A stretch of DNA of 64,000 nucleotides, from positions 96,001 to 160,000 of the IMG/VR virus record IMGVR_UViG_3300037483_001670; one strand, 5' to 3'. Below, piece after piece: positions 35,554-64,000 of the stretch. How positions within the stretch are numbered: position 1 is the stretch's first letter; every line of letters starts with the position of its first letter. The notes under the pieces are model-generated. The model saw only the letters and a list, made by a program, of their open reading frames with translations, did not search any database and was not told the DNA's origin. The position numbers and the translations under genes are program-made. Origin of the DNA: a virus.

Positions 35554-35832
35554 ATGAGCGAAACAGGCCCCGACTTCACCGACGAACTTCCGCCGATTGT
35601 CATCCCGACGATCGGCCGCATCGTGCTGTACACCCTGACCAACGGCCCACACTCGGGCGAGGACCGACCCGCAATGGTCACGAAGGTTCTCGAACACGGC
35701 CAGCTCCACCTCAACGTCTTCACGTTGGGCGTCGACGACGGAGCGACCTACAGCAAGTCGCCCACTGTCACAGTTGCCGAGCCGAGCCGCCACCGCGACT
35801 TAGGCAAGTGGCACTGGCCCGCACGCGTATGA
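35554..35832 (+). CDS. conserved small phage protein, probably leaderless
   Basis: PTIGRIVLY...RPAMVTKV...WHWPARV; TACGAT-N6-ATG. Confidence 0.8.
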   Translation: MSETGPDFTDELPPIVIPTIGRIVLYTLTNGPHSGEDRPAMVTKVLEHGQLHLNVFTLGVDDGATYSKSPTVTVAEPSRHRDLGKWHWPARV

Positions 35833-36008
35833 GCAAAAAGACGTACGATCGGTTCGTTGACTTTGCGATGTCGCGCGGAGCTCACGCCTCCACTCCGCGC
35901 GGCATCGCGCTTTTTCAGCAGTACATCTGCGCCATGCTCGACAAGCTCGCGGAGGGCGGCAGCCCTCACGTCCCCGCCACCGGCCAGCGCGTCTTCTCGG
36001 GCATCTAG
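35829..36008 (+). CDS. hypothetical protein
   Basis: ATGA overlap. Confidence 0.55.
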   Translation: MSKKTYDRFVDFAMSRGAHASTPRGIALFQQYICAMLDKLAEGGSPHVPATGQRVFSGI

Positions 36009-36061
36009 TCTCACCGACCGACAGCGGAGAAGCAACGTGGCTCCTCGAGCATCCGGACGAC

Positions 36062-36268
36062 GTGCGCGTGACGACGCGCGACGAGGATTGGTTCGGGTGG
36101 GCCGAAGGCAAGCACGTCGAGATCATCGTGCGGCGCGCGGAGGCAGCACCGGCTGCTTCCCGTGGCCGTGCTGCGTCGCGTACATCAAAACCCAGTAAGA
36201 AGTCCGCGCAGGCTGCGAGCACTGCTTCCGCGAAACGTCGCCGCAAGCGCGGCAATGGAAGTGAATGA
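36062..36268 (+). CDS. small basic protein
   Basis: 68 aa. Confidence 0.45.
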   Translation: MRVTTRDEDWFGWAEGKHVEIIVRRAEAAPAASRGRAASRTSKPSKKSAQAASTASAKRRRKRGNGSE

Positions 36269-36337
36269 AGTACCGCGAGTACGCGTCGGTCGTCGTCGCG
36301 TAGAGGACGTGCTCCAGGTTCGGAACGGCGACCCAGT

Positions 36338-36784
36338 TCAGCTGGGGCCTCCCGCTGGCTGCGCCGCGGCGCCGTTGGTCGCCGGCGGCTGATCCGGCGC
36401 GGCCGCGGGGACCACCTCGATCGACCGGAAAAGCTCGAGGGCGCGCACCCTCTTCGATTCCGCTTCGCCGGCCTTCGCGAGCGCGACGGTCATCGTATCG
36501 AGGAGCTCGTGGTTCGGGTTGACCATCACGTGCCGGCAGATGTCGAGCAGATCGGTCACCGCCTTGTAGGCCGCGATGCGCTTCTGCCGCCCGATCTCCT
36601 TCAAGAGATCGTCCGGGTCCGGCACGCCATCCGCGTCCGCCGACGCCACCGGCGGCCGACGATTGGGCAGCACTCGACGGACGACGTGCATGACGGCGGA
36701 GGCCGCCACGCCGACGGCGGCGAACCCGAGAAGACTGGACGCGAAGACCGCGTCGCGGACCTGACCACGGTTGGAGGGCGACAT
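36338..36784 (-). CDS. N-terminal TM hypothetical protein
   Basis: AVFASSLLGFAAVGVAASAVM. Confidence 0.6.
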   Translation of the reverse strand: MSPSNRGQVRDAVFASSLLGFAAVGVAASAVMHVVRRVLPNRRPPVASADADGVPDPDDLLKEIGRQKRIAAYKAVTDLLDICRHVMVNPNHELLDTMTVALAKAGEAESKRVRALELFRSIEVVPAAAPDQPPATNGAAAQPAGGPS

Positions 36785-36794
36785 CCCCGACACC

Positions 36795-39360: not shown

Positions 39361-39903
39361 TCACCTCAATCCGGCGGGGCGCTCTTCGCCACCGCTGAAG
39401 CACTGGAGCATGCAATCCCCGCAGTAGCCGATCTTCCGACCGGTCACCAGCTCGGCAATGCTGTCGGCCGACCACTCGATCTGGTCGCGCGTACGATCTC
39501 GCCAAAGCCGCTGCCACGTGCGATGCCGCTTCGTATCCTCGGGCGTGACCCACACGGGCGACCCGGTGCCTTGAGGTGGCGTCATCCAATGCGCCGGGTA
39601 CGCATGATCGGCCGCGTGCCCGAACTCGTGCGCGAGAATCGCCACGAGCGTCTGCACGGGCAGGGAGACGATGTCCGGCGCGTAGTACATGACGCGCCCG
39701 TCGTCGCGCGTCGCTGCGAAATGACGGCCGTCGCAACCGGGCAACTTCGAGCCGCCTCGCCCCACCTTGGGATCGATGATGAACTTGATCTTCTTCAGAC
39801 GATCGAGCTTCACGCCGGGCGCTGGCGAGTACGCCAGAAAAACGTCGCGCACCGCATCGAAATGCGGCTGGAGCACGGCGTAGACGATCTCCTCGAGCTT
39901 CAC
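39361..39903 (-). CDS. HExxH metallopeptidase-like protein
   Basis: LVAILAHEFGHAADH. Confidence 0.7.
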   Translation of the reverse strand: MKLEEIVYAVLQPHFDAVRDVFLAYSPAPGVKLDRLKKIKFIIDPKVGRGGSKLPGCDGRHFAATRDDGRVMYYAPDIVSLPVQTLVAILAHEFGHAADHAYPAHWMTPPQGTGSPVWVTPEDTKRHRTWQRLWRDRTRDQIEWSADSIAELVTGRKIGYCGDCMLQCFSGGEERPAGLR

Positions 39904-40802
39904 ATCACCGGCCCTGCCCAGCCGTGCGCCTGAAACCACCCGGCACGATTCAGGACGTCGACCGAGTAGTCTCGCCCCGTCGTGTAGTAGTCGATGTCGA
40001 GGTTTGCGTTGAGGGCGCGCACCACGTTGCCCCCACCGCAGTTGTACGCCGCGAGCGAGGCACGAAGGAGACCGAGGCCGCGAATGGCGGTGCGGTCGTG
40101 CATGAACTTCCACATCCCGTTGAGCACGCCCGCGCCGTAGCGAATGTTCGCGGCCGCGTCCTGCCAGTTACCCGTCCGCGCAAACTCGTGCGCGTCGAAG
40201 TCGATCTGGAGGAGTCCGCGGCCGTACCCGGTGTTGCCCGGCGGGAGCGCCGCTGTCCGGAACTTCGACGGGAATCGCCGCTTCGTGAAGTCCCCCGTAC
40301 CGGTCGGACCGACAGGACGGAGCTGTAGGCCCCACCCGCTCTCCCGCGACCCGATCCCCGCAAGGACGCACGGCGCGACCCAGTCGTTGCTCGTGCGTCC
40401 CGCTGCGTCGACGACCAGATCGCGGTACTTCTCCGCCTGCTCGAGCTGGCGAATGAGCCCGGGCGAGTCGAGCTCGAAGGTCGTCGTCAGCACCGGATCG
40501 GTGTTGAGGAGACGGCTCCACGTAAGGGCCCCCACGATGCCGTCATCGGAGAGTTGGCACTCCGCTTGGAAATGCCGAACGGCCGCATCGGTCCCACGCC
40601 CGAAAAGCCCGTCCAGCTCGATCCGCATGCCGTGCTCGTTCAAGAGCCGCTGAAGCCGCTCGACGTCCGGACGAAGGTTCGGCGACGTATGGTCGTAGCC
40701 ATCGAAGAGACGCAGCATCGGAAATGCCTCCGTCCCGCCGCCGTTTGCCGCTCCGTCCCGCGGCGTGATCGGCGGCTCTTCCTCTGTCGCTTCGTCGACC
40801 AT
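39900..40802 (-). CDS. modular endolysin: peptidoglycan-binding domain + lysozyme-like domain
   Basis: DVERLQRLL...DGLFGRGTDAAVRHFQ...LSDDGIVGALTW; GIGSRESGWG...GYGRGLLQID...AAYNCG. Confidence 0.92.
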   Translation of the reverse strand: MVDEATEEEPPITPRDGAANGGGTEAFPMLRLFDGYDHTSPNLRPDVERLQRLLNEHGMRIELDGLFGRGTDAAVRHFQAECQLSDDGIVGALTWSRLLNTDPVLTTTFELDSPGLIRQLEQAEKYRDLVVDAAGRTSNDWVAPCVLAGIGSRESGWGLQLRPVGPTGTGDFTKRRFPSKFRTAALPPGNTGYGRGLLQIDFDAHEFARTGNWQDAAANIRYGAGVLNGMWKFMHDRTAIRGLGLLRASLAAYNCGGGNVVRALNANLDIDYYTTGRDYSVDVLNRAGWFQAHGWAGPVM

Positions 40803-40806: not shown

Positions 40807-41325
40807 TCAGCGCCCTTGCTGAAGTGCCGCGTTCGCCATCATCTGGGCGGTGGCGTACGAGATCTTCGACACGTACTCCTCGCCCTTGGCGTCGATCCAG
40901 CCCATGCGCCTCGCTTTGCGCAGGAGCTCGTCAGCCTCTTCCGGCGTGAACATGGGGCCAACGATGTTGCGGCAGCCCGAGCACGTTTGCACCGGCCACC
41001 AGGCCTGCTGCTGCTGGCTGTAGCGCCACTCGGTCACCTCTTGCAGCACCGGCGGGAGCCGCTGCGCCGCCGCGTACCGCGCGACTTCCTGCGGCGGCAC
41101 GTTGTACTTGATCGCCACGAGCTCGGGGTACTCGACGGTGAGCCGAAGGGGGCGCGGGCATCCGCGGCACTGCATTTCGACAGCCACGCCGTGCTGCGTC
41201 GCCTGCGTGCGGACGCTGTCGTGGGCTTTCAGCCCGCCGTCTTGCCCCGCGATGTTCGGCTCGCTCGCTCCGAAGATTCCGTCGGAACGGTTGATGATGT
41301 CTCCAAATCCATCGAACTGGCTCAT
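40807..41325 (-). CDS. Zn-binding hypothetical protein with N-terminal GFG motif
   Basis: MSQFDGFGDI...DGIFG; CRGC, CSGC. Confidence 0.75.
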   Translation of the reverse strand: MSQFDGFGDIINRSDGIFGASEPNIAGQDGGLKAHDSVRTQATQHGVAVEMQCRGCPRPLRLTVEYPELVAIKYNVPPQEVARYAAAQRLPPVLQEVTEWRYSQQQQAWWPVQTCSGCRNIVGPMFTPEEADELLRKARRMGWIDAKGEEYVSKISYATAQMMANAALQQGR

Positions 41326-43244: not shown

Positions 43245-44066
43245 TTACGTGGCCACGCCGATATTGATCATCACTCCGATGTCGGGACTTCCCTCGAAGA
43301 AGCGCAGCACGCCCAGATCGCTCGTAGTAAAATCCCAGGTGACGCCCGCGCCGTCGGTCGCCGGCCGAATGAAACCGATCAACAGTTCATCGCCCTGGGC
43401 TTGCAACTCGTGGACGACGTACGACGGAAACAAGTTGTTGATGAGCCCAACACGTTGCTGTGCGAAAGTGGCAGGCGCCCCCAGCGCCACAGGCGCAATC
43501 GGGATGTTCGGGAAAAGAGTGCCAGGGGAGCTTGCGCCTGCGCCGGCACCGTCCGTCACCCGAAACTTCTCCGATACCATGTCCCCCGCCTGAACGAGCG
43601 GATACTGCGTAACGTTGTCGACGGCGAGCCCGAGGACCACATCGCTGTACTGCATGATCGATCCCTGCGCAGCCATCGGGATCAGGAACTCGTTATTTCC
43701 TTGCAAATTTTGCATAGGAAAATGAAACGGAATGCGCTGGTTGCGGTAGTCGAACACATTGCGCTGCCGCCAGCCGATACACCAGTCGTACGGCAAGATG
43801 TCGCCGAAACCGATTCCAGGCGACGGAATGATCGGCAGCCAAATCGACACGCGGGCCCCGAACGGCACGGGCAGACCACGCAGCAGGCCCGCGTTGTATC
43901 CGGGCAATCCCGCCCTGCCATCGAAAGGAACGCCGCCCTCGGTCACCATGATCGGCCGAGTGACGGACTGACCCTGGTACCGCGTCGTGTAACCGGTGTA
44001 CGGACGCAGAATGCTCGTCACACCAAACTGCGGATCATTCAGAACCGGAACCGCTTCTCCGCTCAT
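43245..44066 (-). CDS. beta-rich virion protein candidate (possible penton/minor capsid)
   Basis: 273 aa, Pro/Gly and beta-strand pattern; GGAGTG RBS. Confidence 0.6.
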   Translation of the reverse strand: MSGEAVPVLNDPQFGVTSILRPYTGYTTRYQGQSVTRPIMVTEGGVPFDGRAGLPGYNAGLLRGLPVPFGARVSIWLPIIPSPGIGFGDILPYDWCIGWRQRNVFDYRNQRIPFHFPMQNLQGNNEFLIPMAAQGSIMQYSDVVLGLAVDNVTQYPLVQAGDMVSEKFRVTDGAGAGASSPGTLFPNIPIAPVALGAPATFAQQRVGLINNLFPSYVVHELQAQGDELLIGFIRPATDGAGVTWDFTTSDLGVLRFFEGSPDIGVMINIGVAT

Positions 44067-44105: not shown

Positions 44106-44462
44106 TCAGCCGTCCCCGAGTAGCCAGCGAGCGATGGCCGCATCGACGACGGCGACGGTGCCCGTCAGCGCCGCCACGTTGCGGTACGCCGGCTCCGCTT
44201 GTCCCTGCCGAAGGTAGACGACGGTGCCGATGCCGTGCTTCAGCGCCGCGGCCGCGGCCCAGCCGCCGAGCGCGCCGCGCAGGCCACTCCACAAGAGACC
44301 GCCGACGATGCCGACGCCGTACGCGGCGGTGACGATCACTTTCGCCTGATCGCGCGAGTCGTCCGTCGCGAGGTGCGCCGGCCACTCCTGAAAGTTTTGC
44401 ACGCCGAGAAAGGTCACCCCGGCCGGCGCCTGCACCGCGTCTTCCGCAAACCCCTGTCTCAT
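44106..44462 (-). CDS. multi-TM membrane protein
   Basis: three hydrophobic helices. Confidence 0.7.
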   Translation of the reverse strand: MRQGFAEDAVQAPAGVTFLGVQNFQEWPAHLATDDSRDQAKVIVTAAYGVGIVGGLLWSGLRGALGGWAAAAALKHGIGTVVYLRQGQAEPAYRNVAALTGTVAVVDAAIARWLLGDG

Positions 44463-45058
44463 GCCGGGTAATCCTTCTTCTTCCCGCCCTTGTCGTGGAG
44501 GCCACGGTAGAGGAGATACGACGCCAGCGCTCCCCCGAGTACCGCATACGTCCCCGAGACAACGGCCTCTCTGTCAGCCTCCGGCGTTCCGATCGTCACC
44601 GCCCGCGCGGCGCGCGCGAGGTTCATGATCGAGCCGCCGTAGAGCCCGCCAGAGAGCCCGCCGAACATGCCGCCGCCGTACTTTGCACCGATCGCGCTCC
44701 CCACCCCGACGAGGAGCAGCCCCAACCCGAGCGTGTGTGCGTTGTCTTGCGGGATTCTCTCGGGCGGCCTCTGCGGCTCAGCCGCAGAGGGATCGACACC
44801 GAACGCCTGCGGGTAGTGGGGCGCCGCTACGCTGTGTCGCGCGTCGACAGCGTTCGGACGCGTGGGCATCCTCGGCGCCATCGCCATCATGGGCGGTCCG
44901 AAGCTAGGCTCCGGACCGGAGGGCGACTGAAACCTCGCCGCGAGGGGCGCGGAGCCCGGCGCAGGAGGCAGGTTGTCGTTCGGCGTCCAGGTGGAGCCGA
45001 TGAAGCCGTTCGATTCGGCTCCGATGTCTTCGATACCGTCGAGGGGGATGGCGGACAT
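44459..45058 (-). CDS. membrane protein with Pro-rich N-terminus and Gly-rich TMs
   Basis: TLGLGLLLVGVGSAIG...GGALASYLLY + KKK tail. Confidence 0.75.
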   Translation of the reverse strand: MSAIPLDGIEDIGAESNGFIGSTWTPNDNLPPAPGSAPLAARFQSPSGPEPSFGPPMMAMAPRMPTRPNAVDARHSVAAPHYPQAFGVDPSAAEPQRPPERIPQDNAHTLGLGLLLVGVGSAIGAKYGGGMFGGLSGGLYGGSIMNLARAARAVTIGTPEADREAVVSGTYAVLGGALASYLLYRGLHDKGGKKKDYPA

Positions 45059-49696: not shown

Positions 49697-49721
49697 AGCT
49701 GAAACGTCTCCCTACAGACGA

Positions 49722-51467: not shown

Positions 51468-51494
51468 GGGGCGCAGGCGTCCTTCCGGACCGCG

Positions 51495-51526
51495 CGCTCA
51501 GCTCGAGCGTCCTACCCCAGAGGATA
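51495..51526 (-). promoter_or_regulatory. putative late promoter TATCCT-N15-CGAGCTGAGCG
   Basis: recurrent motif upstream of paralogue C. Confidence 0.7.
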
Positions 51527-51564
51527 CATGAGCCGGGGGCCAGGGCCAATCCCAAGCCGCAAAT

Positions 51565-53586: not shown

Positions 53587-53915
53587 CGAAACCACCCCTG
53601 CCGGCTCGCGTAGTATCCTACCGCGAAGAGCGCCGCGCCCACCAAGGCGAGCGTCGCATTCGAGCTTGTTCCGAAGTTGATCGCGCCCATCGCGCCCTTG
53701 CCGCATTGCACGACCATGCCTCGAGCGTGCCACCCTTGCCCGACCAGCTTTGCGCTGCTCGGCAAGGGACGACCTGCGACGATCGCCGGCACGCCGACAC
53801 CGTTCGTGGGCGCGGGCAGGTTCGGCACGGGCAAGTCTGCGTTGAGCGGCAGATCGTCGGCCGACTCGTAATACAAATAGAGCCCCTTCTTCGGGTCGAA
53901 GCACGAATGGATCAA
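53583..53915 (-). CDS. C-terminally anchored membrane protein
   Basis: GAMG/NFG + ALVGAALFAVGYY. Confidence 0.75.
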   Translation of the reverse strand: MIHSCFDPKKGLYLYYESADDLPLNADLPVPNLPAPTNGVGVPAIVAGRPLPSSAKLVGQGWHARGMVVQCGKGAMGAINFGTSSNATLALVGAALFAVGYYASRQGWFR

Positions 53916-54760: not shown

Positions 54761-55034
54761 GTCGCCTCCTCGCGCCCGCCGTGGGCTGGCGCGCAAAGTC
54801 CATGATAGCCGCGAGGCCCACGAGCGCGCCGCAAAGAATCGCGCCCCAGCCCATCGGTCCCATGGACGCTTGCAACGGCCCGTTCGGCACGCACTTGAAC
54901 GAAATCGGATCGGTATGCTGGCCCGACGGACACGCCCGCAGCTCTTCGCTGGCGAAGATGACCGCGCACCCGCCCGGCGCCTGCGCGTCGGCGACCTGAC
55001 CCCTCGGACACAGCGTCTCTCCGAGCCCCATCAT
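54753..55034 (-). CDS. Cys-hairpin membrane protein starting MMGLG
   Basis: CPRGQ..C, CPSGQHTDPISFKC; C-terminal TM + RRRR. Confidence 0.75.
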   Translation of the reverse strand: MMGLGETLCPRGQVADAQAPGGCAVIFASEELRACPSGQHTDPISFKCVPNGPLQASMGPMGWGAILCGALVGLAAIMDFARQPTAGARRRRG

Positions 55035-56098
55035 CAGCGGTGCCTCTTCGCGTGTTTGACCGGCGCACCCGTGAAGAGCGCCGCCCCTAGCGCGAGCCCG
55101 ACCCCCGCCACCACGAACCAGCCCGCCGATGCCGCCTTCGGGGGCACCGGCTTCGGCACGCACCGCTCGAGCGCTTCGTCGAAAACGTCGTTCGGGCCCC
55201 CGCACGTCACCGTCGTCGACCCCTGCCGCTTCGGCATCTTCGCGATGATTTCGCGCGCGGTCTGGTCGCGCTCGATGCGCTTCATCTCCAGCCGGGCCAA
55301 GACGTCGGACCGAGTCGATTCGTTCGTCGCCTTCGCGAGCGTCGCGTAGAGCGCGTCGAGCTCGCGCTCCGCGGCCTTCCACTTCGAGTAGAGCGTCGAG
55401 TCCCCGTCGGGGGGCGCCACTGGGTGCAGGGCCACGTTGATCGTCGGCACGACCGAAACGCTGTTGCGCACGCTCGGGTTCAGATCGACACCCGCGCCCA
55501 CCTCCGCCGCTGCCCCGAGCAGCGCGTCCTCGAAGAGTCCGAGCCGCGCAGACGACGGACCGCCGTAGCCGCACGCCTGGAGCGCCGCGATGCCGCGCTG
55601 AAGCAGGTTCGCCGCCTCGTACCGGAGCGCGACGTCGAGCAAAAGGAGCCCGTTGGTCGTCGGCTGCGCGAGCCCGTTCACCACCCCAAACAGCGGAAAC
55701 GCGAAGCACATGTACCGCGGCGCCCACCGCGACAGGAAGGCCACGAACTCGTCCGCCGCGACGTCACTCCAGGTGTCATCGTCGACAAGCTGCGCCCAGA
55801 GCGATTCCTTGATCAGCTCTTGCTCGCTCCACGGAATGATCCCGGGCGTCGCGCCCGCCTGGCCAAGACGCTTCAGGGCTCCCTTGATCTCGCGCACGCG
55901 ACCGGGAGCGCCGAGATCGTACGACACGATGGGGTCCGCGCCCAATGCCGCGCGGTGGCGTTGCCCGTACTCGAACGGCTCGTAGGCGCGCTCTCCGACG
56001 CCGGGGCCCTCGTATTCGCCCATCGTGCCGGCGAGATCGCGCCGCTCACGCAGCGTCCAAAAGGGCTGCGTACCGGCAGGCATTCCAAGCCCGCTCAT
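55034..56098 (-). CDS. C-terminally anchored membrane protein starting MSGLG
   Basis: 354 aa; CGGPNDVFDEALERC; TM + KHAKRHR. Confidence 0.8.
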   Translation of the reverse strand: MSGLGMPAGTQPFWTLRERRDLAGTMGEYEGPGVGERAYEPFEYGQRHRAALGADPIVSYDLGAPGRVREIKGALKRLGQAGATPGIIPWSEQELIKESLWAQLVDDDTWSDVAADEFVAFLSRWAPRYMCFAFPLFGVVNGLAQPTTNGLLLLDVALRYEAANLLQRGIAALQACGYGGPSSARLGLFEDALLGAAAEVGAGVDLNPSVRNSVSVVPTINVALHPVAPPDGDSTLYSKWKAAERELDALYATLAKATNESTRSDVLARLEMKRIERDQTAREIIAKMPKRQGSTTVTCGGPNDVFDEALERCVPKPVPPKAASAGWFVVAGVGLALGAALFTGAPVKHAKRHR

Positions 56099-56496
56099 CC
56101 GAAAAGCCTCTGCGCCTTCGGACGGCGCCGATCGATGAAGTAGAGAATCGCTCCGCCGACCGCAGCGCCGCCCGCGAGCCACCCGGCGGTGCCGCCGAAC
56201 ACGCTCGCCCGCGAGAACGACGCGCCGCCCGGCATCGACGTCGAGCTCCCCCTACGGATGATTTGCGCGGGACCGATGGAAACCGACACCGCATCCCTCG
56301 GCACGCACTGCTGCGCGCTCTCGCTCCAGACATCGTCGCCCGGACAAGGAAGACTCGGATCGACGCAGTCGTTCGGCGACCTCGGATCGAAGACCAGTCC
56401 CGCTGCGCAGTGACACCGCAGCGTGAACGGATCATAGATCGTGTTGTCGCCGCACGGGGGCGGCCGATCCGGACCGGCAAAAGCGGCGTAGCTCAC
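56095..56496 (-). CDS. Cys-hairpin C-terminally anchored protein
   Basis: CAAGLVFDPRSPNDC, CPGDDVWSESAQQC; TM + RRRPK. Confidence 0.75.
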   Translation of the reverse strand: MSYAAFAGPDRPPPCGDNTIYDPFTLRCHCAAGLVFDPRSPNDCVDPSLPCPGDDVWSESAQQCVPRDAVSVSIGPAQIIRRGSSTSMPGGASFSRASVFGGTAGWLAGGAAVGGAILYFIDRRRPKAQRLFG

Positions 56497-56506
56497 TGAG
56501 CTCGCC

Positions 56507-56929
56507 TTACTTCTTCTTGGCGAGCAGCGCGAGTACCAGACCGCCCGCCGCGATCCCGCCGATGATGTAGGGCGTGTTCGGCCCGAAGATCGACATGAGC
56601 GACTTCTTCGGCGCGAGCGAGGGGGGCGTCACCGTGGCCGTTCGGATCGGGACCTGCTGGGCGCCCGCACCCTTGCCGGTCAGATCGACACCGGCCTTGA
56701 CGGCCGCCGCGATCTGCGCCGACGACATGTACTTCGTGAGCGCCACGCAAGCTTTGTCGGCGTCGACCCATTGCGTTCCCGGACCGCACATCGTCGACTG
56801 GTCCTTGCAGACGCCGCCGACGTCGATCGAATCTTCGCCGCAAATGCACCTTGACGCGTCGTCGTCCCAATGCCGGCCCGGCGGACAGTCCTCGGCGCCC
56901 ATACCGTACGAAATGAATTGCTGCCTCAT
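56507..56929 (-). CDS. Cys-hairpin C-terminally anchored protein
   Basis: YGMG; CPPGRHWDDDASRC, CGPGTQWVDADKAC; TM + KKK. Confidence 0.8.
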   Translation of the reverse strand: MRQQFISYGMGAEDCPPGRHWDDDASRCICGEDSIDVGGVCKDQSTMCGPGTQWVDADKACVALTKYMSSAQIAAAVKAGVDLTGKGAGAQQVPIRTATVTPPSLAPKKSLMSIFGPNTPYIIGGIAAGGLVLALLAKKK

Positions 56930-56944
56930 CGTCTTGCCTCTTCC

Positions 56945-57313
56945 TTAGAACGCCGACTGCGTTGTTGGTTTGCGCACCCAAAGAGCCGCGCCGAGCAGGC
57001 CGGCGAGGCCAAACGTTCCTGCCATCGCGCCCGCGACCGCTCCGCCAGCGGCCCAGAAGGCGCGGTCGGTTGGCCGGGGCGCCGCGAAATAGCCGAGCGC
57101 TCCGACGAGCAGCGCGTCCCCGATCGTGTACCCGGTCACGGTGCCGAATAGCAGCGGACGGTCAGCGGCCCCGATGCCGGCCGGCGCAGTCGGGGCGACC
57201 TGCCCGACCTTCTGCATGGCCGAGCAGCCGCAGCCGATCCCGTTCACTGAGCGCGGCGCGAGATCGGTGCGCACGAGAGGGTACGGATTGATCGTCTGTC
57301 CCGCTACGAACAT
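56945..57313 (-). CDS. multi-TM membrane protein
   Basis: VNGIG, AGIG; Gly-zipper TMs. Confidence 0.75.
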   Translation of the reverse strand: MFVAGQTINPYPLVRTDLAPRSVNGIGCGCSAMQKVGQVAPTAPAGIGAADRPLLFGTVTGYTIGDALLVGALGYFAAPRPTDRAFWAAGGAVAGAMAGTFGLAGLLGAALWVRKPTTQSAF

Positions 57314-57318: not shown

Positions 57319-58005
57319 CTACTTCTTCCTCGGGGCCGGTTTCCCGAAGCCTTGCGCGAGCGCGATGGCAGGCGTGATGACCGGAAACGCGCCGCCCATG
57401 AGACCCCACCAGATCGCCCAACCGATCGACTCGTTGCGCCTGTAGCCGTGGTACGCCGACGCGGCGAGCGACGCCGAGCTGAGCGCCCACCAACCCGTCT
57501 TGCCGAGCCAGCTGTTCGCCGGGTTGAACCTGAGCCATTGACCTGGACCAGCCACCAGCGGGACACCCTGTCGTGCCTGCACGAGCCGGCTCTGAAACGC
57601 CTGCGCCGTATAGAGCCGCTTCTCGGCCTGAAGCATCTCGATGTAGGTCTGAAGCTGCGACGGCACTCCACGAAGAAAGCCCGCCGTCAGATCGTCGAGC
57701 GCGTCCGCGTTGTACGCGCCAGCGCCGGCAGCCACGTCGGCGTCCATCGCCTGCTTGATCGCGCCCTTGGTCTGATCGACCTCCGCGGCGGTCACGCCCT
57801 CCGGCAGCGGAAAGGGTGCCGCGTCGAGACCCGCGTAGGGCGCGAGCGCGTACGGGTTGATCGCCAGCTGCTGACTGAACATCGGCTGGTTGAAAATCGG
57901 CCCGTGGTAGCGCGTCGGGTACGGGTGCACGTGCGGCACGAGCGGACTCGGCACGCCGTTCTCCGTGTCTCCAAAAATCGACTCGTTGCCCGATTGCATA
58001 CGCAT
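57319..58005 (-). CDS. membrane protein with SAYHGYRRN..GWA.WWG motif
   Basis: C-terminal 2-3 TMs, ends AQGFGKPAPRKK. Confidence 0.8.
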   Translation of the reverse strand: MRMQSGNESIFGDTENGVPSPLVPHVHPYPTRYHGPIFNQPMFSQQLAINPYALAPYAGLDAAPFPLPEGVTAAEVDQTKGAIKQAMDADVAAGAGAYNADALDDLTAGFLRGVPSQLQTYIEMLQAEKRLYTAQAFQSRLVQARQGVPLVAGPGQWLRFNPANSWLGKTGWWALSSASLAASAYHGYRRNESIGWAIWWGLMGGAFPVITPAIALAQGFGKPAPRKK

Positions 58006-58018: not shown

Positions 58019-58234
58019 CTACGTTCCTGCGGGCGGTCGCGCCATCACGACAAGCGCCGCCACCGGTCCCACGATCGCCCCCGTCACCGCGAACTCCTTG
58101 CCACCGAGCGCGTGCCCGAGAAAATAGCCGGCGATCCCCGCCCCGACGATCGCGATGCTATGCGTCAGCGCGGGCGGCACCTCGGCCGGTGCGCCAACGC
58201 CCGCGGTGGGGCACATCATCGCCGGCCACTCCAT
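58019..58234 (-). CDS. small 2-TM membrane protein
   Basis: TAGVG; two hydrophobic helices. Confidence 0.65.
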   Translation of the reverse strand: MEWPAMMCPTAGVGAPAEVPPALTHSIAIVGAGIAGYFLGHALGGKEFAVTGAIVGPVAALVVMARPPAGT

Positions 58235-59082
58235 CAGCGCGCTCTCCTCCGCCTCTTCGTCGGATGGCCCGTCACGGTCCCCGCGAAGATCGCCGCGCCG
58301 ACACCCACGAGCGCCGCGGCGAAGAAATACGCTGTCCACGATTTTGCGCCGCTCGCGTCGGCGGTGTCACCGACAGCCGGAATGCTCTGCTGAAACGCGA
58401 CCGTGTACTGCGGGTTCGTCGCCGAGTACGCGTCGACAGTCGACCGCATCGGCACTTCCGCGCGCGTGTCGGGCACCGCCACCGTGCCGCCGTAGTACGC
58501 CGGCGTGACACCGTGCGGAGGCGGACCCGAGTCGCGCACTGGACCCACCGGCACTTGCAGCGAGCTGCCATCGCCCGGCTTCCGATCGCCACGAATGACG
58601 ACGTAGGGGTTGTTGTGATCGTCGACCTGAAGCGGCCCGACGAGGCGCCCGCCGCGCTCGACGTACGCCATGCCGCCGCCAGGGACGACCACGACATCGG
58701 CCCCGCTCGGGAGATCGATGACCTCCTTGCTGACGGCGAATTGCACCTCGCGCGCGATGTAGCCGGGAAGGCTTGGATGGTCCGAGAAGACTCCCATCGT
58801 CTTGTGGACCGTTCCGGGCCGACCCGATTCGTCGAAGATGCCGGAGCCGACGACGTCGTCGTCGCTCTCGATTTGCTGAACGTAGTCGTCGTGGCGCTCG
58901 CCCTGGTAGCTTTCAGGTACGGCGCCGAAACCTGCAACGGCTCGACCTTGGGACAAGCTCCACCTCTCTTCGATCACGGGGTTCAGCTGCCCGATGAGCG
59001 GCAACCGGCTGCTGATCGGGTCCTTGTTGACGAGACGCCCCGTGTAGGGCTGTCGACTGGGCAAATGGATGATACCGGGCAT
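58234..59082 (-). CDS. C-terminally anchored membrane protein
   Basis: VAGFG; TM + KRRRRAR. Confidence 0.8.
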   Translation of the reverse strand: MPGIIHLPSRQPYTGRLVNKDPISSRLPLIGQLNPVIEERWSLSQGRAVAGFGAVPESYQGERHDDYVQQIESDDDVVGSGIFDESGRPGTVHKTMGVFSDHPSLPGYIAREVQFAVSKEVIDLPSGADVVVVPGGGMAYVERGGRLVGPLQVDDHNNPYVVIRGDRKPGDGSSLQVPVGPVRDSGPPPHGVTPAYYGGTVAVPDTRAEVPMRSTVDAYSATNPQYTVAFQQSIPAVGDTADASGAKSWTAYFFAAALVGVGAAIFAGTVTGHPTKRRRRAR

Positions 59083-59083
59083 C

Positions 59084-59944
59084 CTACGCCGCCTTTCGCT
59101 TCTTTTTCGCCACGTAGTACGCACCGCCGCCGATCGCGAGCGCCGCGACGCCGAGGGCGACGAAGAGACCGGTCTTGCTCGAGCTCGCCGGCTGCGTCAT
59201 CGCGTACGTCGTCGTCACGGCCGCCGCAGGCGAGTCCATCTTCTTGATCTGAAGGAAGCCGGCCCCGGGCCGCACGACCTGCGGCGTGTAGTCGACCGCC
59301 GGCTTCGGCGTCTTCGACGGCTCCTCGAACGACTCCGGCCACTGCGTCGGATCCTCGCACACGCTCGGACGGGTCAGCCCCTTCGGCACCGGCGCGACAT
59401 AGTTGCCCGAGGCATCCATCTCGAGCTTGCACATGTCGGTCATCCACTGGCTCTTGCCGAATGGTGGAATGCCCTTGGTGGGCACCATCGACTTCTCTTC
59501 GGCGATGAACCGCGGCCTGCTCGGTTCGAGACCCTTGTAGTTCAGGTACGCGACGGTCGCGTTGTAGGAGTTCTGTTCCGTGCACGGCCACGCCCGGTCC
59601 CAGGTGGTCATGCGCCCGTAGATGCCGCAGTTCCCAACCACGCCGTTGACGGTGAGAGATGGCCCCTTCTCGAACCCGGCCGCGTCCCACGGGTTGGCGG
59701 GCGCGTCACCGAAGCCAGAAATCGCGCGCGCCTGGCGATCCGCCGTCCACGATGGGGGCACCACCTGCGGCACGACGTCCGACGCATAGACGCGCTGACC
59801 GAAGATGTCCCGGCCCACGCCCGCGTGACCGTCAATCCGACCCGCCACGGTCTTCGTGATGGGCTTTGGGCTCATGTCCGCCGAGTACCGACTCGTATCG
59901 GTTTGCGCCAACGATCCGAGCCCACCAAAGATTCCGTTCGTCAT
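59084..59944 (-). CDS. C-terminally anchored membrane protein (YSADM family)
   Basis: IFGGLG, ISGFG; TM + KKKRK. Confidence 0.8.
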   Translation of the reverse strand: MTNGIFGGLGSLAQTDTSRYSADMSPKPITKTVAGRIDGHAGVGRDIFGQRVYASDVVPQVVPPSWTADRQARAISGFGDAPANPWDAAGFEKGPSLTVNGVVGNCGIYGRMTTWDRAWPCTEQNSYNATVAYLNYKGLEPSRPRFIAEEKSMVPTKGIPPFGKSQWMTDMCKLEMDASGNYVAPVPKGLTRPSVCEDPTQWPESFEEPSKTPKPAVDYTPQVVRPGAGFLQIKKMDSPAAAVTTTYAMTQPASSSKTGLFVALGVAALAIGGGAYYVAKKKRKAA

Positions 59945-61058: not shown

Positions 61059-61721
61059 TCAGTCGAGTTTCATCTTCAAGAGCGTCTGGGCCCGCCCTGC
61101 GGCTTCCAGCTCGCGCGGCCCTGCGACGCCGTCGAGCAAAATCCATTTCTCACTTTTCGGCTCTTGCGCCGTGATCGCCACGTGCGAGAGCTTCCCCGGC
61201 GCGAATCCCATTGCGACGAGCGTGACGTTGCGGCCGATGGTGAGGCACATCGTCGCCGCCATCGTCGAGACGTCGTCACAGTCGACGACGGTCGAACCGT
61301 AGGCGTTGATCTCTTCGACCTGGCGCTGCGGGTCCTTCACCATCTCGACGTGCCGCGGATCGTTCGCGTACCGAAAGAGCGCGATGCCGGGCACCCAAGG
61401 ACTCGGTTGCACGAACACGTTGCGAATCGCGAGGATTTCGCCGAGGTAGTCCTTCGGCTGCACGCCGCGCAGCGCCCACTCGGTGAACTGCCGCACCTCC
61501 ATGGAGCGCTCGCCGCGCGCGCCGAGGGCCGCGTCCGCCATCTGTTTCAGCGTCGTCTCGGGTCCGCGAAACGGCCGCACGGTGTACGAGCTCGGCCGAA
61601 ACGCGGCCTGCTCGGCCGCAAACCCAAGGAACCCGCCGCCCACGCTCGCGCCGCCCGCCAAAGCTTGCGGCATGAGCGGCATCCCTGTGCGAGCGTTTTT
61701 CTCTACCAAGCTGAACGACAT
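61059..61721 (-). CDS. transglutaminase-like Cys-His-Asp enzyme (candidate maturation protease)
   Basis: FRYANDP..E.V..P, VVDCDD (Cys), LSHVA (His), WILLD (Asp). Confidence 0.85.
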   Translation of the reverse strand: MSFSLVEKNARTGMPLMPQALAGGASVGGGFLGFAAEQAAFRPSSYTVRPFRGPETTLKQMADAALGARGERSMEVRQFTEWALRGVQPKDYLGEILAIRNVFVQPSPWVPGIALFRYANDPRHVEMVKDPQRQVEEINAYGSTVVDCDDVSTMAATMCLTIGRNVTLVAMGFAPGKLSHVAITAQEPKSEKWILLDGVAGPRELEAAGRAQTLLKMKLD

Positions 61722-61739
61722 GCGTGTCCCGTTGGACAA

Positions 61740-61769
61740 CGCTCAGCTCGAGGTCCCAAAACAAGTCTA
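61740..61769 (-). promoter_or_regulatory. putative late promoter TAGACT-N13-CGAGCTGAGCG
   Basis: heads the TGase + membrane-protein operon. Confidence 0.75.
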
Positions 61770-61834
61770 CCGGACCCAGCCTGCGAGCACAAGTCGCCGG
61801 GAAGCTACCGAAAAACTGGCCCGGCCGGGAGCCC

Positions 61835-62371
61835 TCAACTGGCCTGCGCCGGCTCGACGAGCTTCTCGAGCTCGACCCAAACCTTCGCGGCATGCGACTC
61901 TACCAGCTCGGCGAGCTCCGCCGATGGCTCCTTTTCCAAGAGGGCGTTGCGCACGATGTCCATCGCCTGCGACGCGCCCATCTCGACGAGCCGCTTGACG
62001 TTGTCGACCCCGATCGTTTCGGTGAACGCCCGCGCGATGCTCACCGGATCGTCCCCCTCGGGAACGGCGATCATGTGCTCGATGTAGCCCTCGAGCGCCT
62101 TGCCCATGAGCTCGACGGGCATGAGCTCGACGCCGAGCTGCACCCCGAACATGCCCAACATGGCCGACGCGGCGGCCTGAACGTGCGTCGGCATCATGTG
62201 GGGCGGGCACTTCGCCACCAAAGATTGAGAGAACTCGATACGCAGCTGGGTTTCGCCGCCCGACGCGAACTCGATCCGGATGCGTTCGGCGTCGGCCGTT
62301 GCCGTCACCGTCGATTCTTCGTTCGTCAGTCTGAGCTCACCCGTCCACGGCTTCTTCTTTTTCGTTTCCAT
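61835..62371 (-). CDS. hypothetical protein
   Basis: 178 aa. Confidence 0.75.
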   Translation of the reverse strand: METKKKKPWTGELRLTNEESTVTATADAERIRIEFASGGETQLRIEFSQSLVAKCPPHMMPTHVQAAASAMLGMFGVQLGVELMPVELMGKALEGYIEHMIAVPEGDDPVSIARAFTETIGVDNVKRLVEMGASQAMDIVRNALLEKEPSAELAELVESHAAKVWVELEKLVEPAQAS

Positions 62372-62387
62372 TCCCGATCTCCCTTTT

Positions 62388-64000
62388 TTACGCAGCCGCG
62401 CCAGCCATCTGGTTGATGATCGCTACGGCCTCGTCCCAAACGGCGCGCACGTACTTCTGTCCCGCGCGCGTCACGATCGCCGTCTGCTGACCAGCGGGCT
62501 GGCCATTGACGAACTCGATGAACACGTCGGCCGACACCGCAGCGATGACCTGGTTGGCCACCTGCGGACCCGCGTGCTGAATGAATCCCTCGGCGAATTG
62601 CCGCGGCGCAACGACGCCGCTCCGAATCGCCTGATCGAGCTGGCCGACGAACATGCCGATCGCTTCCGCCGGAATCACCTGCGGTTGCTGCTGCGGAGGC
62701 GGCGGCTGGCTCGGCGCGGCCTGCACCGGCGGCTGACCGGCGGCCCTCACCTGTTCGGGCGTCGGACCCCAGACGGGCTGCGTCGGCGGAGCGACCGGAG
62801 CTCCCCACCCTCCCGCGGGCGCTACCCCTTCGGGCGGAGCGTGAGGCGGCATCCCGTCGTTGAGCGGGCTGACGCCCATCCGAACTTCTGTCTCGGTGCC
62901 AGCGACCGGCGGCGAAGCCGGTCCCTGGATCCGCGACCCCTCGATGACGCTCGGCGCGGCAATTCCCATCGGCGAGAGCGGCGGTGGCGGCCCCTGAAAC
63001 GGAGCCGGAATCCCCGCGGGCGCGGCGCCGGGAGGAGGCGGCGACCACCGCATCGCCGGCGCCATGACCGGCGGCTGCCGCTGAACGGGTCGACGCACCA
63101 TGTTCGGCGGTCCTGCCTGGAGCCGCGGAGCCGCCGCCTGCTGCGCCGCGGCGACCTGCCGGTTGTTGTCGCGCGCCGCGACCACACCTTCGCGCACATC
63201 TCGGACGAGCTCGGGCGCCTTCGCGAGAAGCGACTGGAGCCCCAGCGCGAGCGCCGACTTCCAATCGGTCGGCGGCGCGGCCTCGGCCTCGTTTTCGCCC
63301 GGCGCCGTGTACCCGAGCACTTCCGCGGTCTGCTTGATTTCCTCGAGCTGCTGTCCGAACGGCTTGTTGTTTTGCTGCCGAGCTTCACTGATCTCGCGCT
63401 CGAGCCGGTGATTTTCGCTACGCAGGCGCGTGAGCTCGCTGTTGTGCGACTCGATCTTGACGTTCGCCGTCTCCTTCGAAAAGGTCGTCATGCTGTCGTA
63501 TTGGGTCTTGAGCGCCGACACTTCCCGATCGCGCTGCTCGCGCACGGTTGCGATCTCGCGCTGCGTCGACCGCTCGATGTCCTGCACGCGTCCCTCGTGG
63601 GTCGTCTTCAGGTAGGTCATTTGCAACTCGTGCGCGTCCTTGAGCGCCTGCTCGCGCCGGGCCGCTTCTTCTCGGATCCGCTCGCGCTCCCGCTGCGCCT
63701 CTTCCAAGATGCGCGCACGCTCCCGATCGAGTCCCGCGGCTTTGACCTCGTTCTCTCGACTCGCGGCGCCAAGCTGCTTTTCGTATTCGCCGCGCTGTCG
63801 ATCGATTTCGCCCTGCTTCTCGGTCCGCAGCCGATCCGTGTCTTCGCGCTGGCGCAGGTTCGACTGCTCCAGCTCGGTCTTGTGCCGCAGGTTCAATTGC
63901 TCGAGGTCAGTTTTGTTCCGGTCTTTGATCTCGTTCGTCTCCCGAAGCAGGCGCTCGTTCATGGCCTTCATTTCGGCCACGTGCGCATCCTTGAGGGTGT
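62388..64000 (-). CDS. long coiled-coil + Pro/Gln-rich protein (scaffold/tape-measure-like), 5' end outside window
   Basis: E/R/Q heptads, then a Pro-rich linker, then a helical C-domain; frame open past 64000. Confidence 0.75.
   Translation of the reverse strand, partial: TLKDAHVAEMKAMNERLLRETNEIKDRNKTDLEQLNLRHKTELEQSNLRQREDTDRLRTEKQGEIDRQRGEYEKQLGAASRENEVKAAGLDRERARILEEAQRERERIREEAARREQALKDAHELQMTYLKTTHEGRVQDIERSTQREIATVREQRDREVSALKTQYDSMTTFSKETANVKIESHNSELTRLRSENHRLEREISEARQQNNKPFGQQLEEIKQTAEVLGYTAPGENEAEAAPPTDWKSALALGLQSLLAKAPELVRDVREGVVAARDNNRQVAAAQQAAAPRLQAGPPNMVRRPVQRQPPVMAPAMRWSPPPPGAAPAGIPAPFQGPPPPLSPMGIAAPSVIEGSRIQGPASPPVAGTETEVRMGVSPLNDGMPPHAPPEGVAPAGGWGAPVAPPTQPVWGPTPEQVRAAGQPPVQAAPSQPPPPQQQPQVIPAEAIGMFVGQLDQAIRSGVVAPRQFAEGFIQHAGPQVANQVIAAVSADVFIEFVNGQPAGQQTAIVTRAGQKYVRAVWDEAVAIINQMAGAAA

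Follow-up and report, generated by a model that had tools for sequence, protein, structure and literature searches.

In Tectiviridae and Corticoviridae (PRD1 and PM2), a tailless shell over an internal membrane is combined with many small membrane proteins, vertex spikes, and virion lytic enzymes. Sphaerolipoviridae/Matsushitaviridae (Helvetiavirae: SH1, HHIV-2, HCIV-1, and P23-77), which are likewise tailless and contain an internal membrane, encode two side-by-side single jelly-roll capsid genes and keep a conserved FtsK/HerA-type packaging ATPase adjoining them. In Sulfolobus polyhedral virus 1 (SPV1; Portogloboviridae), the shell consists of single jelly-roll proteins, the nucleoprotein core is wrapped in a membrane, a basic protein coats the DNA, and no packaging ATPase is known. 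SSIP-1, a tailless membrane phage, is icosahedral (T=49; PMC6260650); its gp34, annotated as a "structural protein," is a proven virion protein. The SSIP-1 genome is 44 kb long, compared with 15 kb for PRD1 and 10 kb for PM2 (PMC6260650, Table 1).

Here, we analyzed a 64,000-nucleotide stretch of viral DNA (the window), corresponding to positions 96,001 to 160,000 of IMG/VR record IMGVR_UViG_3300037483_001670. In the reading that we favor with moderate confidence, the right half of the window is the main morphogenesis block of an uncultured, ~182-kb dsDNA bacterial virus, representing an undescribed and widespread lineage without HK97-capsid, portal, terminase, or tail machinery. Because it shares a virion protein with SSIP-1, the virus is a probable member of an undescribed group of very large phages without tails. 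It is known here from its genes alone, and from these we infer its particle, lipid, protein roles, and host. No paper describing such modules was found in the open-access literature. The observations of an initial annotation of the window were confirmed item by item; its interpretation stood with regard to the module, the lack of tailed-phage hallmarks, and the exceptional size, but not with regard to an assignment to Varidnaviria.

Genome size and completeness

The contig is 182,423 bp long and contains 252 genes. It is listed in IMG/VR as linear, with a CheckV completeness of 73%; we consider the genome probably complete instead, because its ends overlap and the gene order at the junction is that of complete relatives. 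The last 130 nt are identical to the first 130 nt at 128 positions (126 of them consecutive, with the reading frame kept), which would fit the circularity that the initial annotation had left to be checked. The order of h242 to h245, the tail-anchored genes, h008, h013, and the glycosyltransferases crosses the contig junction in exactly the arrangement that relatives G008, G014, and G002 show in one uninterrupted stretch. The overlap is broken in its final 4 nt and falls within coding sequence that is repetitive and Pro-rich; a repeat, instead of closure, could therefore account for it.

ARAGORN identified 38 tRNAs (40 had been counted initially), all on the minus strand between 17.7 and 35.3 kb of the window and together covering all 20 amino acids. 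With its ~182 kb and 38 tRNAs, the genome far exceeds any described tailless bacterial virus that we found, and the lineage would be exceptional, as had been anticipated. The contig also carries inteins, HNH genes, a replication and repair set, a CRISPR-Cas12f-like locus, glycosyltransferases, and a recombinase-domain protein.

Gene content of the proposed morphogenesis block

The features of the block are listed in Table 1. Between 44.4 and 61.2 kb of the window, the minus strand harbors 14 high-GC3 ORFs with a hydrophobic 17-mer (mean Kyte-Doolittle value, 1.37 to 2.24) in the last 45 residues. About 14 proteins ending in a transmembrane helix plus a basic tail had been proposed; the C-terminal helix is present in all 14 ORFs, but the basic tail (2 to 6 Lys/Arg after the helix) is present in only 12. 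Stricter gene calls gave 17 tail-anchored proteins for the whole contig, with 8 located here and 4 at the contig start. These proteins lack signal peptides, and their bulk is therefore predicted to be cytoplasmic rather than on the cell surface. Similar tail-anchored runs recur beside the same core genes in all relatives, and two ORFs of the ten-ORF run (57319-58005 and 58234-59124) have conserved counterparts in relatives. The run encodes candidate virion-membrane proteins, and the tail-anchored proteins are what points to an internal membrane.

Table 1. Features of the proposed morphogenesis block (window coordinates)
Feature	Position	Strand	Remarks
Two small genes, 129 and 90 aa	36795-37466	-	Distal end of the module; 52% and 51% identical homologs, with order kept, in metagenome locus L019
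h198, lysin-like protein	39900-40802	-	PG_binding_1, E 4.8e-13; weak SLT, E 0.0044
Conserved 172-aa protein	40807-41325	-	Four Cys in two CxxC pairs (zinc-ribbon-like)
Candidate structural protein, 223 aa	42558-43229	-	Homolog in L019 only (65% identity)
h205, single jelly-roll-like beta-sandwich protein	43245-44066	-	AF2 model, mean pLDDT 64
Conserved protein, C-terminal helix and basic tail	44459-45058	-	Homologs in L016-L019, G008, G012
Tail-anchored protein	45878-46408	-	6 Lys/Arg in tail; 47% homolog in L019
Four paralogs, 520, 322, 526, and 466 aa	47178-48740, 48728-49696, 49887-51467, 51565-52965	-	Common N-terminal domain, divergent C termini
Conserved core protein	52969-53949	-	47-71% homologs in L014, L018, L019; also in G002, G008, G014
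Polytopic membrane protein	53912-54796	-	Three hydrophobic segments; 43% homolog in L014; homologs in G008, G012
Ten-ORF run, each ending in one hydrophobic helix	55034-61146	-	8 of 10 with at least 2 Lys/Arg after the helix
h225, SSIP-1 gp34 homolog	61059-61739	-	Family profile versus gp34
Acidic protein, 178 aa	61835-62371	-
h227, acidic, partly coiled-coil core protein, 897 aa	62388-65081 (to contig 161081)	-	Window holds the C-terminal part (62388-64000)

Over their first 120 columns, the four paralogs share 51 to 63% identity, and beyond these, 21 to 46%. This upholds the paralogy that had been noted for four "spike-like" proteins; as to the role implied by that name, they are candidate receptor-binding spikes. 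They had no Pfam or PHROG match and are not conserved in the relatives, the exception being the N-terminal 43 residues, found again in a 1,695-aa protein of G002.

The profile of the h225 family matched residues 22 to 156 of SSIP-1 gp34 (E value, 7.5e-17; 52.7 bits), and the reverse phmmer search gave E values of 1.5e-11 to 1.5e-5. Proteins of this family are 36 to 65% identical in seven genomes and have invariant Cys153, His185, and Asp202 residues (Cys-His-Asp order); a sequence-based search of solved structures with h225 gave no match. The lysin-like protein, correctly described at the outset as a peptidoglycan-binding endolysin, matched PHROG endolysin families (E values down to 3.6e-13) and SSIP-1 ORF54 (phmmer E value, 1.1e-10). 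Its PG_binding_1 and SLT domains point to a peptidoglycan-bearing host, and several lysins are encoded. The long coiled-coil protein of the initial annotation proved to be h227, which contains stretches of 88 and 76 residues devoid of Pro and Gly. It has homologs of 840 to 1,124 aa in G002, G008, G012, and G014 and no match in Pfam or PHROG.

Among the other genes, homologs of the 172-aa protein (32 to 69% identity) come after the jelly-roll gene in L014, L016, L018, and L019. The conserved core protein at positions 52969 to 53949 is probably encoded by a real gene of ~206 aa, as in the relatives, and the two small genes at the distal end had no PHROG match.

Predicted jelly-roll proteins

Two conserved proteins were folded, namely, h205 and h244, which is encoded just outside the window. 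The model of h205 agrees with the beta-rich character predicted for this protein and includes a disordered insert of ~75 aa; 20 homologs (32 to 41% identity) were found, and all four compared relatives have one. Its fold neighbors were generic jelly rolls only (VIA Z up to 6.2), and on the basis of the model, h205 is a candidate minor capsid or vertex protein. The adjacent 223-aa candidate structural protein matched no Pfam or PHROG family.

The model of h244 comprises a 55-aa helix and a single jelly roll (pLDDT, 76). Its best Foldseek match was the SPV1 capsid protein (6oj0; E value, 7.4e-3; probability, 0.69), with which it aligned over 139 residues (VIA Z, 6.2; rmsd, 3.7; identity, 11 to 12%), and the neighbor list consisted mostly of viral capsid proteins (SH1, HHIV-2, PRD1 P3, PBCV-1, and P23-77 VP17). 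All of the fold matches are weak (VIA Z of ≤6.9), and the nonviral enzyme PHM scored equal to any capsid protein; the fold calls therefore extend to "jelly roll" only.

The genes for h243, h244, and h245 are adjacent, and h243 and h245 look beta-rich from their sequences. Located outside the window (contig positions 174808 to 177785), they encode the best candidates for the capsid proteins. h243 (255 aa) is the most conserved protein; its family gave an hhalign probability of 0.1% against PM2 P2, and its nearest named ESM Atlas clusters were the PM2 P2 and PRD1 P3 families, at a chance-level score of 0.76 to 0.77. The h243 and h244 families have >677 and >723 homologs, respectively, with 50 to 90% identity and no Pfam domain, as would be expected of the capsid proteins from an abundant group of viruses. 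The search for single or double jelly rolls, for which Foldseek had been recommended, yielded single jelly rolls in both folded proteins, with viral capsids as weak nearest folds. Because no double jelly roll was seen in these two models and no FtsK/A32 ATPase was found, the membership in Varidnaviria proposed initially is unsupported.

Relatives and conserved core

The h244 family was present in 13 IMG/VR records, five of which have terminal repeats. G008, G012, and G014 are circular (111 to 136 kb), with exact terminal repeats of 132, 123, and 141 nt, respectively. We counted as core those contig genes that recur in three or more of the four relatives retrieved. It comprises h205, h215, h222, h225, h227, h229, and h242 to h245, as well as a recombinase-domain protein of 1,200 to 1,400 aa, two glycosyltransferases, an SLT lysin, and two small proteins. 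The part common to the three circular relatives includes the jelly-roll, membrane, and protamine-like proteins. Apart from the coiled-coil h227 and one tail-anchored protein, no unassigned core protein was of portal or TerL size (≥400 aa). The block is supported as a module with conserved genes and synteny, carried by a genome that is virus-like and extrachromosomal.

It is very unlikely that the genome is not viral at all but a large plasmid or mobile element, in which the block would encode cell-envelope proteins, e.g., surface or secretion components. No conjugation or partition machinery was found in the conserved core, and the lack of signal peptides in the tail-anchored proteins, the several lysins, the viral-capsid neighbors of the jelly-roll proteins, the homology of h225 to an SSIP-1 protein that occurs in virions, and the classification of the related records as viral by IMG/VR all argue for a virus. 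The plasmid interpretation draws on the candidate status of the capsid and packaging functions, on the location of some homologs in MAG bins, and on the fact that membrane proteins, glycosyltransferases, recombinase-domain proteins, CRISPR-Cas12f-like loci, and tRNA arrays also occur on plasmids.

Searches for tailed-phage hallmarks

Every protein of ≥110 aa encoded by the contig, and by this contig only, was compared with 38,880 PHROG families. Terminase, portal, major head, tail, sheath, baseplate, and tape-measure families gave no valid match, in line with the initial annotation, which had recognized no terminase, portal, HK97 capsid, tail-tube, or sheath motif in the window. The scan included the remainder of the contig, where a TerL, portal, or HK97 capsid gene would have spoken against that annotation, and none of them was found. 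Of the proteins encoded between 36 and 64 kb of the window and at the 3' end of the contig, 31 had no PHROG match better than an E value of 0.001; for 16 others, the only matches were to endolysin or DnaB-helicase families (three proteins). Several nominal matches were rejected: a "terminase" was the intein of a UvrD helicase, a "portal" was a NUDIX domain that gave the same match in all 14 control genomes, and a "lytic tail protein" and "tail fiber" were one protein with an SLT lytic-transglycosylase domain.

The UvrD intein apart, no Pfam terminase family matched the contig proteins of ≥110 aa. In the 15 related records, Terminase_6N and TerL_ATPase, Phage_portal, and Phage_capsid were all absent (0/15). 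This four-family screen is insensitive, with no family detected in phiKZ, RSL1, and Bxz1 (whose terminases it also missed), one in MW202482, and three in phage G. Phage_capsid was positive in one of the five tailed controls; Phage_portal was positive in none and is therefore uninformative. Instead of the HK97 fold, the two folded conserved proteins have jelly rolls.

Such misses leave some room for a very divergent tailed jumbo phage (Caudoviricetes), with its hallmarks too diverged or in unassembled DNA and with the tail-anchored block as an accessory membrane module. The CheckV estimate and the "linear" record are compatible with this idea, the genome size, tRNAs, inteins, HNH genes, and replication/repair set are typical of jumbo phages, and the nearest unnamed ESM Atlas clusters are mostly labeled "Uroviricota." We nevertheless regard it as quite improbable. 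PHROGs covers the hallmarks of every known jumbo phage, the contig ends overlap with synteny across the junction, and the core of the closed relatives contains neither a portal/TerL-sized unassigned protein nor an ATPase. Among phage genes, TerL normally shows the strongest conservation; h243 retains 56 to 68% identity between genomes, yet nothing TerL-like is common to them. Moreover, the module encodes a homolog of a tailless-phage virion protein.

DNA packaging and proposed particle organization

The FtsK/A32-type packaging ATPase that the initial annotation had suggested looking for beyond the window was not found as a gene conserved in the relatives. A HerA-like protein encoded upstream (contig positions 79138 to 81225) was rejected for this role, as it is not common to the relatives; its gene has a 34% identical homolog within the replication module of a tailed phage with a terminase of its own. 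The P-loop proteins of the closed relatives were DnaB-like (Walker motif and BLAST match to a DnaB-like gene), RavA/MoxR-like, a Mg-chelatase/ComM homolog, RecA-like, and G012_108 (no assignment), and no ATPase was conserved in their core. The virus encodes an 859-aa protamine-like protein with a net charge of +197 and a hydrophobic, Gly-rich C-terminal part.

The absence of a packaging ATPase, the hydrophobic end of the +197 protein, and the presence of at least 12 tail-anchored proteins would also suit an enveloped or pleomorphic virus, with a protamine-like nucleoprotein core inside a membrane and with jelly rolls as spikes or matrix. Jelly rolls do act as spikes or adhesins (among the h205 fold neighbors), and SPV1, the best fold neighbor, wraps its nucleoprotein core in a membrane. 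This arrangement seems unlikely to us, since three to four distinct and very conserved proteins, jelly-roll or beta-rich, are encoded together, the h244 neighbors are shell proteins of icosahedral membrane viruses, and the coiled-coil core protein would be suited to setting the size of a large shell. The sole cultured virus with a homolog, SSIP-1, is icosahedral (PMC6260650).

In the favored reading, a tailless shell would be built of small jelly-roll proteins, i.e., h205 and the three very conserved proteins encoded outside the window. A dozen or more tail-anchored proteins would reside in a virus membrane under or around the shell, and the four paralogs would be exchangeable receptor-binding spikes held by their common N terminus. 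h225, with its Cys-His-Asp residues, may belong to the virion and could act as a protease or a cross-linking enzyme; h227 may scaffold or measure the large shell; and the lysins would open the cell wall. The +197 protein probably condenses the DNA, in place of pumping by a conserved motor; no ATPase is common to the lineage.

Comparison with known viruses

PRD1 and PM2 differ from this virus in their 10- to 15-kb genomes (PMC6260650). They also encode a packaging ATPase and a capsid protein with a double jelly roll, and our searches found no counterpart of either. The jelly rolls of PRD1 P3 aligned with h244 at Z scores of 5.4 to 5.8. The adjacent h243, h244, and h245 genes recall the paired capsid genes of Helvetiavirae, whose proteins aligned with h244 at Z scores of 6.2 (SH1), 5.9 (HHIV-2), 5.7 (HCIV-1), and 5.1 (P23-77 VP17). 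However, Helvetiavirae genomes are 17 to 31 kb, no sequence similarity to them was found, and their packaging ATPase has no conserved counterpart here. SPV1, the top fold neighbor of h244, has a putative analog of its basic core protein in the +197 protein. It is an archaeal virus of ~20 kb, whereas the host here is predicted to bear peptidoglycan, and unrelated jelly rolls can also reach a Z score of 6.2.

SSIP-1 is the only cultured virus with detectable homologs, namely, gp34 (h225) and ORF54 (h198); its gp43 also matches a protein of relative G008. Profile comparisons of h243, h244, h245, h205, h215, h222, and h227 with all SSIP-1 proteins gave no similarity. The relationship, as judged from one structural protein and one lysin, is therefore distant, since these seven other core families show nothing. 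The genome described here is four times larger, with its 38 tRNAs, and unlike this virus, SSIP-1 has no annotated protamine-like giant protein; its predicted packaging ATPase, gp40 (PMC4124505), has no homolog here. The likeness to SSIP-1 lies in almost no database matches, a long one-strand structural gene block, and a shell that is large for a tailless phage (PMC6356626).

A putative tailless morphogenesis module

The block of genes in the last part of the window probably belongs to a tailless, membrane-containing virus with a jelly-roll shell. The initial annotation had described tail-anchored proteins, paralogs, a peptidoglycan (PG)-binding protein, and a long coiled-coil protein here, and our ORF and domain checks agree with that description. 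The region is almost wholly on the minus strand. Between 44.4 and 61.2 kb, 14 ORFs encode a C-terminal hydrophobic helix, with a short Lys/Arg-rich tail in 12 of them; no second helix and no N-terminal signal-like segment were seen in these proteins, except for the polytopic product of 53912-54796. A second tail-anchored group, Pro-rich in this case, lies at contig positions 23 to 9793 (h002, h005, h006, and h007); h008, in the same group, shows weak similarity to DnaJ and is kept in relatives.

The best capsid protein candidates of the lineage are three adjacent genes beyond the window, h243, h244, and h245. Environmental homologs sharing 50 to 90% identity number more than 723 for h243 and more than 677 for h244, all of them lacking a name or Pfam domain and carried on contigs of up to 177 kb. 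The AF2 model of h244 (pLDDT, 76) has a single jelly roll behind a long N-terminal helix. The capsid protein of Sulfolobus polyhedral virus 1 (SPV1) tops its Foldseek list, and capsids of membrane-containing and other icosahedral viruses fill it, at VIA Z values of 5 to 6.9. PHM, a nonviral jelly roll, ranks equal. We regard a non-icosahedral or enveloped virus as unlikely. A profile search of h244 against the Protein Data Bank returned only noise in the N-terminal helix. For h205, encoded within the window at 43245-44066, the model (pLDDT, 64) shows a jelly-roll-like sandwich interrupted by a disordered insert; its structural neighbors are all generic. No relation was detected by hhalign for h243/h244, h205/h244, h205/h243, or h243 versus PM2 P2, and the ESM Atlas returned solely unnamed viral clusters, with named neighbors at chance level.

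The gene preceding this trio, h242, encodes a giant basic protein whose charge is concentrated in the first 600 residues; the C-terminal third is hydrophobic and Gly-rich. It is kept in all relatives, adjoining the jelly-roll genes.

Features of the contig and of the window, with coordinates as numbered in each
Feature	Coordinates	Strand	Description
UvrD helicase	window 1-2120 (gene running from contig 94998)		1040 aa; split by a Hint + LAGLIDADG intein
tRNA array	window 17688-35267	minus	38 tRNAs, all 20 amino acids; ARAGORN
PG-binding protein	window 39900-40802		PG_binding_1 domain; weak SLT match
Four paralogs	window 47178-52965		N-terminal part well conserved, divergent beyond
Acidic protein (h227)	window 62388-65081		897 aa; long Pro/Gly-free runs
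Topoisomerase-like gene	contig 54941-57265		second intein
GroES homolog	contig 71812-72144		
HerA-like ATPase	contig 79138-81225		initial FtsK/HerA packaging candidate, rejected (see text)
Recombinase-domain protein	contig 88085-91717		1210 aa; tyrosine-recombinase domain at residues 325-515; about 700 residues without assignment
h242	contig 172066-174645		859 aa; 229 Lys+Arg versus 32 Asp+Glu, net +197
h243, h244, h245	contig 174808-177785		adjacent conserved proteins of 255, 368, and 306 aa; two very highly conserved

Search for hallmark genes of tailed phages

The window spans bases 96001 to 160000 of a 182,423-bp IMG/VR virus record (G000), and subtracting 96000 from a contig position gives the window position. 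Every protein of at least 110 aa encoded on this record was scanned against PHROG, directly or as a member of dummy alignments, and a Pfam scan covered many of them as well. Among these proteins, there was no match to a family for terminase, portal, head, tail, sheath, baseplate, or tape measure. The initial annotation, which had proposed a tailless internal-membrane virus in an unusually large genome, thus holds on this point: the PHROG scan found no terminase, portal, or HK97 capsid genes on the same contig. When 31 proteins from 36 to 64 kb of the window and from the 3' end of the contig were scanned jointly, no PHROG match was better than an E value of 0.001. Two nominal matches were rejected. 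The large-subunit "terminase" phrog_19299 aligns to the UvrD intein and is false, and the "portal" phrog_15528 aligns to a NUDIX domain and also matches 14 of 14 control genomes.

A Pfam screen of 15 related records for Terminase_6N, TerL_ATPase, Phage_capsid, and Phage_portal gave no positives. We give this screen little weight because tailed control phages revealed its weak sensitivity: none of the four families was detected in phiKZ, RSL1, or Bxz1, one was detected in MW202482, and three were detected in phage G. A negative from these four families alone is no basis for calling a genome tailless. What counts against a tailed phage is instead the PHROG scan of G000 together with the analysis of core genes (see below), in light of which a divergent tailed phage appears distinctly unlikely.

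The HerA-like protein was not counted as a packaging ATPase because its phage homolog belongs to the replication genes of a tailed phage and because the gene is not common to the relatives of G000. That nearest phage homolog (34% identity) is located in the replication arm of MW202482, a 43-kb tailed phage with its own terminase and portal, where its neighbor is an SMC-like gene; the "terminase" match of the HerA-like protein (phrog_2666) was discarded, its homolog sitting in the replication module of the same phage. SbcC/SMC-like and HerA-like ATPases lie close together in G000 (contig positions 75355 to 81225), and a comparable SMC-like and HerA pair occurs in MW202482. The pair looks like a repair or replication system rather than a packaging system.

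Relatives and the conserved core

The h205 protein has 20 metagenomic homologs, of which two belong to MAG bins, assigned to Acidimicrobiia and Gemmatimonadota, respectively; it retrieved no IMG/VR records as a single sequence and one as an alignment, and tblastn with h225 or h205 gave no match at E values of up to 1. The gene order h225, h222, h221, h216, h215, h207, h205, h199 is kept in five metagenome loci (L014, L015, L016, L018, and L019). No Pfam domain is on record for this block, and the few neighboring genes with matches encode lysozyme, HTH, integrase, and chaperonin proteins. In the 110.7-kb IMG/VR record G002, the h229-h215 block is contiguous with the h242-h245 block, which in G000 lies beyond the window at contig positions 172066 to 177785. 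A further 13 IMG/VR records encode h244, five of them with terminal repeats, and exact repeats (132, 123, and 141 nt) were verified in three. We consider a nonviral element highly improbable.

Genes common to G000 and most of G002, G008, G012, and G014 are h205, h215, h222, h225, h227, h229, and h242 to h245, together with genes for a tyrosine-recombinase-domain protein, an SLT lysin, two glycosyltransferases, and several small proteins. The genes that the relatives keep and G000 lacks encode a DnaB-like helicase and proteins that are small or tail anchored. The shared-gene comparison therefore describes a lineage without a conserved ATPase or portal-sized protein, despite h243 identities of 56 to 68% between genomes. 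The recombinase-domain protein, kept at 1194 to 1414 aa in L014, G008, G012, and G014, is a candidate integrase, resolvase, or telomere resolvase.

Gene content and completeness of the genome

Gene calling by GC3 and GC2 frame bias yielded 252 genes (h001 to h252) covering 81% of the contig, whose GC content is 60 to 69%. A megablast search with 19 kb of the window found no match among 50,697 phage records. A search of sequencing runs located the stretch in two sediment metagenomes, from which it may derive, with no RNA datasets listed. PHROG and Pfam scans recognized replication genes (DnaB, primase, and SSB), UvrD and a topoisomerase (each intein bearing), SNF2 and other helicases, SbcC-like and HerA-like proteins, RNase H, thymidylate synthase, methyltransferases, many HNH endonucleases, GroES, a sigma factor, glycosyltransferases, a DegT aminotransferase, a Cas12f/TnpB-like protein, and three PG-binding or SLT lysins. 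As judged from these matches, the recognized functions are replication, repair, and metabolism. In the 93-kb locus L014, GroES and GroEL (positions 19729 to 20609) adjoin a large recombinase-domain gene; GroEL was not seen in G000.

The 40 tRNAs of the initial annotation were revised to 38 by ARAGORN (17.7 to 35.3 kb). ORFs of the HNH endonuclease family, with many PHROG HNH matches, lie within this stretch (window positions 17688 to 35267). G002, G008, G012, and G014 have zero to two tRNAs each, and the array is therefore a recent gain of G000 rather than a trait of the lineage.

IMG/VR lists G000 as linear, with a CheckV completeness of 73%. Contig positions 1 to 130 and 182294 to 182423 agree at 128 of 130 nt, with 126 matches in a row, and the reading frame still open where the contig ends is continued by that of the first gene. 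The order h242-h243-h244-h245, tail-anchored genes, h008, h013, and glycosyltransferases is unbroken in G008, G014, and G002; in G000, this order begins at the contig end and carries on at the contig start. Because the ends overlap in frame and synteny with relatives crosses the junction, G000 probably represents a whole genome, circularly permuted and about 182.3 kb long, and its database label is probably wrong. Some doubt about closure comes from the final 4 nt, where the match breaks down, and from the Pro-rich repeats in which the overlap lies.

Homology to the tailless phage SSIP-1

SSIP-1 is a 44-kb tailless phage with an internal membrane and T=49 symmetry (PMC6260650), and it is said to encode two types of capsid protein (PMC6356626). 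The profile of the h225 family, encoded near the end of the window, matched SSIP-1 gp34, an annotated structural protein, over gp34 residues 22 to 156 (E value of 7.5e-17; 52.7 bits), with conserved motifs that include D-C-D and H-V. The reverse search from gp34 gave E values of 1.5e-11 to 1.5e-5. In h225, Cys153, His185, and Asp202 are invariant across seven genomes, making a Cys-His-Asp enzyme plausible. Because the h225 profile matched nothing in the Protein Data Bank, a transglutaminase-fold protease is suggested only at the level of motifs. SSIP-1 ORF54 also matches the PG-binding lysin of G000. Comparisons of seven core families with 21 SSIP-1 proteins by hhalign gave no probability above 10%, and no homolog of gp40, the predicted ATPase of SSIP-1 (PMC4124505), was found here.

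Proposed virion and comparison with known viruses

We infer the following mechanism entirely from the genes that are present and by analogy with SSIP-1, SPV1, sphaerolipoviruses, and PRD1. Small jelly-roll proteins would form a tailless shell surrounding or resting on a membrane, and this membrane would carry the tail-anchored proteins, with the four paralogs serving as swappable spikes. The h225 protein would be a virion enzyme, h227 a scaffold or ruler, and h242 would condense the DNA. We class the finding as a probable tailless jelly-roll membrane virus whose genome is far larger than those of known members and which lacks a motor. The Varidnaviria-type assignment of the initial annotation is not established because neither a double jelly roll nor an A32-type ATPase was found.

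It is possible, and we put it forward tentatively, that G000 represents a high-rank lineage of bacterial viruses not yet described. The lineage would be widespread, its closed genomes would measure 111 to 182 kb, and G000 would be its largest member to date. Such viruses would combine a single-jelly-roll, tailless, membrane-lined shell, DNA condensed by a giant protamine-like protein without a packaging motor, and a full tRNA set, in an architecture known to date only from viruses 4 to 15 times smaller. How about 180 kb of DNA enters a shell without a recognizable motor would then become a question, for which the protamine-like protein suggests condensation and coassembly. The genomes of the lineage offer candidate capsid proteins with hundreds of environmental homologs, as well as tRNA sets, inteins, CRISPR-like loci, and chaperonins.

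In the open-access literature, we found no account of such large tailless viruses of bacteria. To our knowledge, every bacterial virus described to date whose genome exceeds about 50 kb has a tail, and tailless membrane-containing phages are considered to be confined to small genomes. Jelly-roll shells do scale to giant genomes in eukaryotic giant viruses. If the lineage is as proposed, tailless genomes of 110 to 180 kb would break the rule that large bacterial viruses are tailed and would show that, in bacteria too, jelly-roll shells can enclose jumbo genomes. Its nearest relative by fold is SPV1, and its nearest by homology is SSIP-1, an orphan for more than 10 years that would thereby gain its first relatives.
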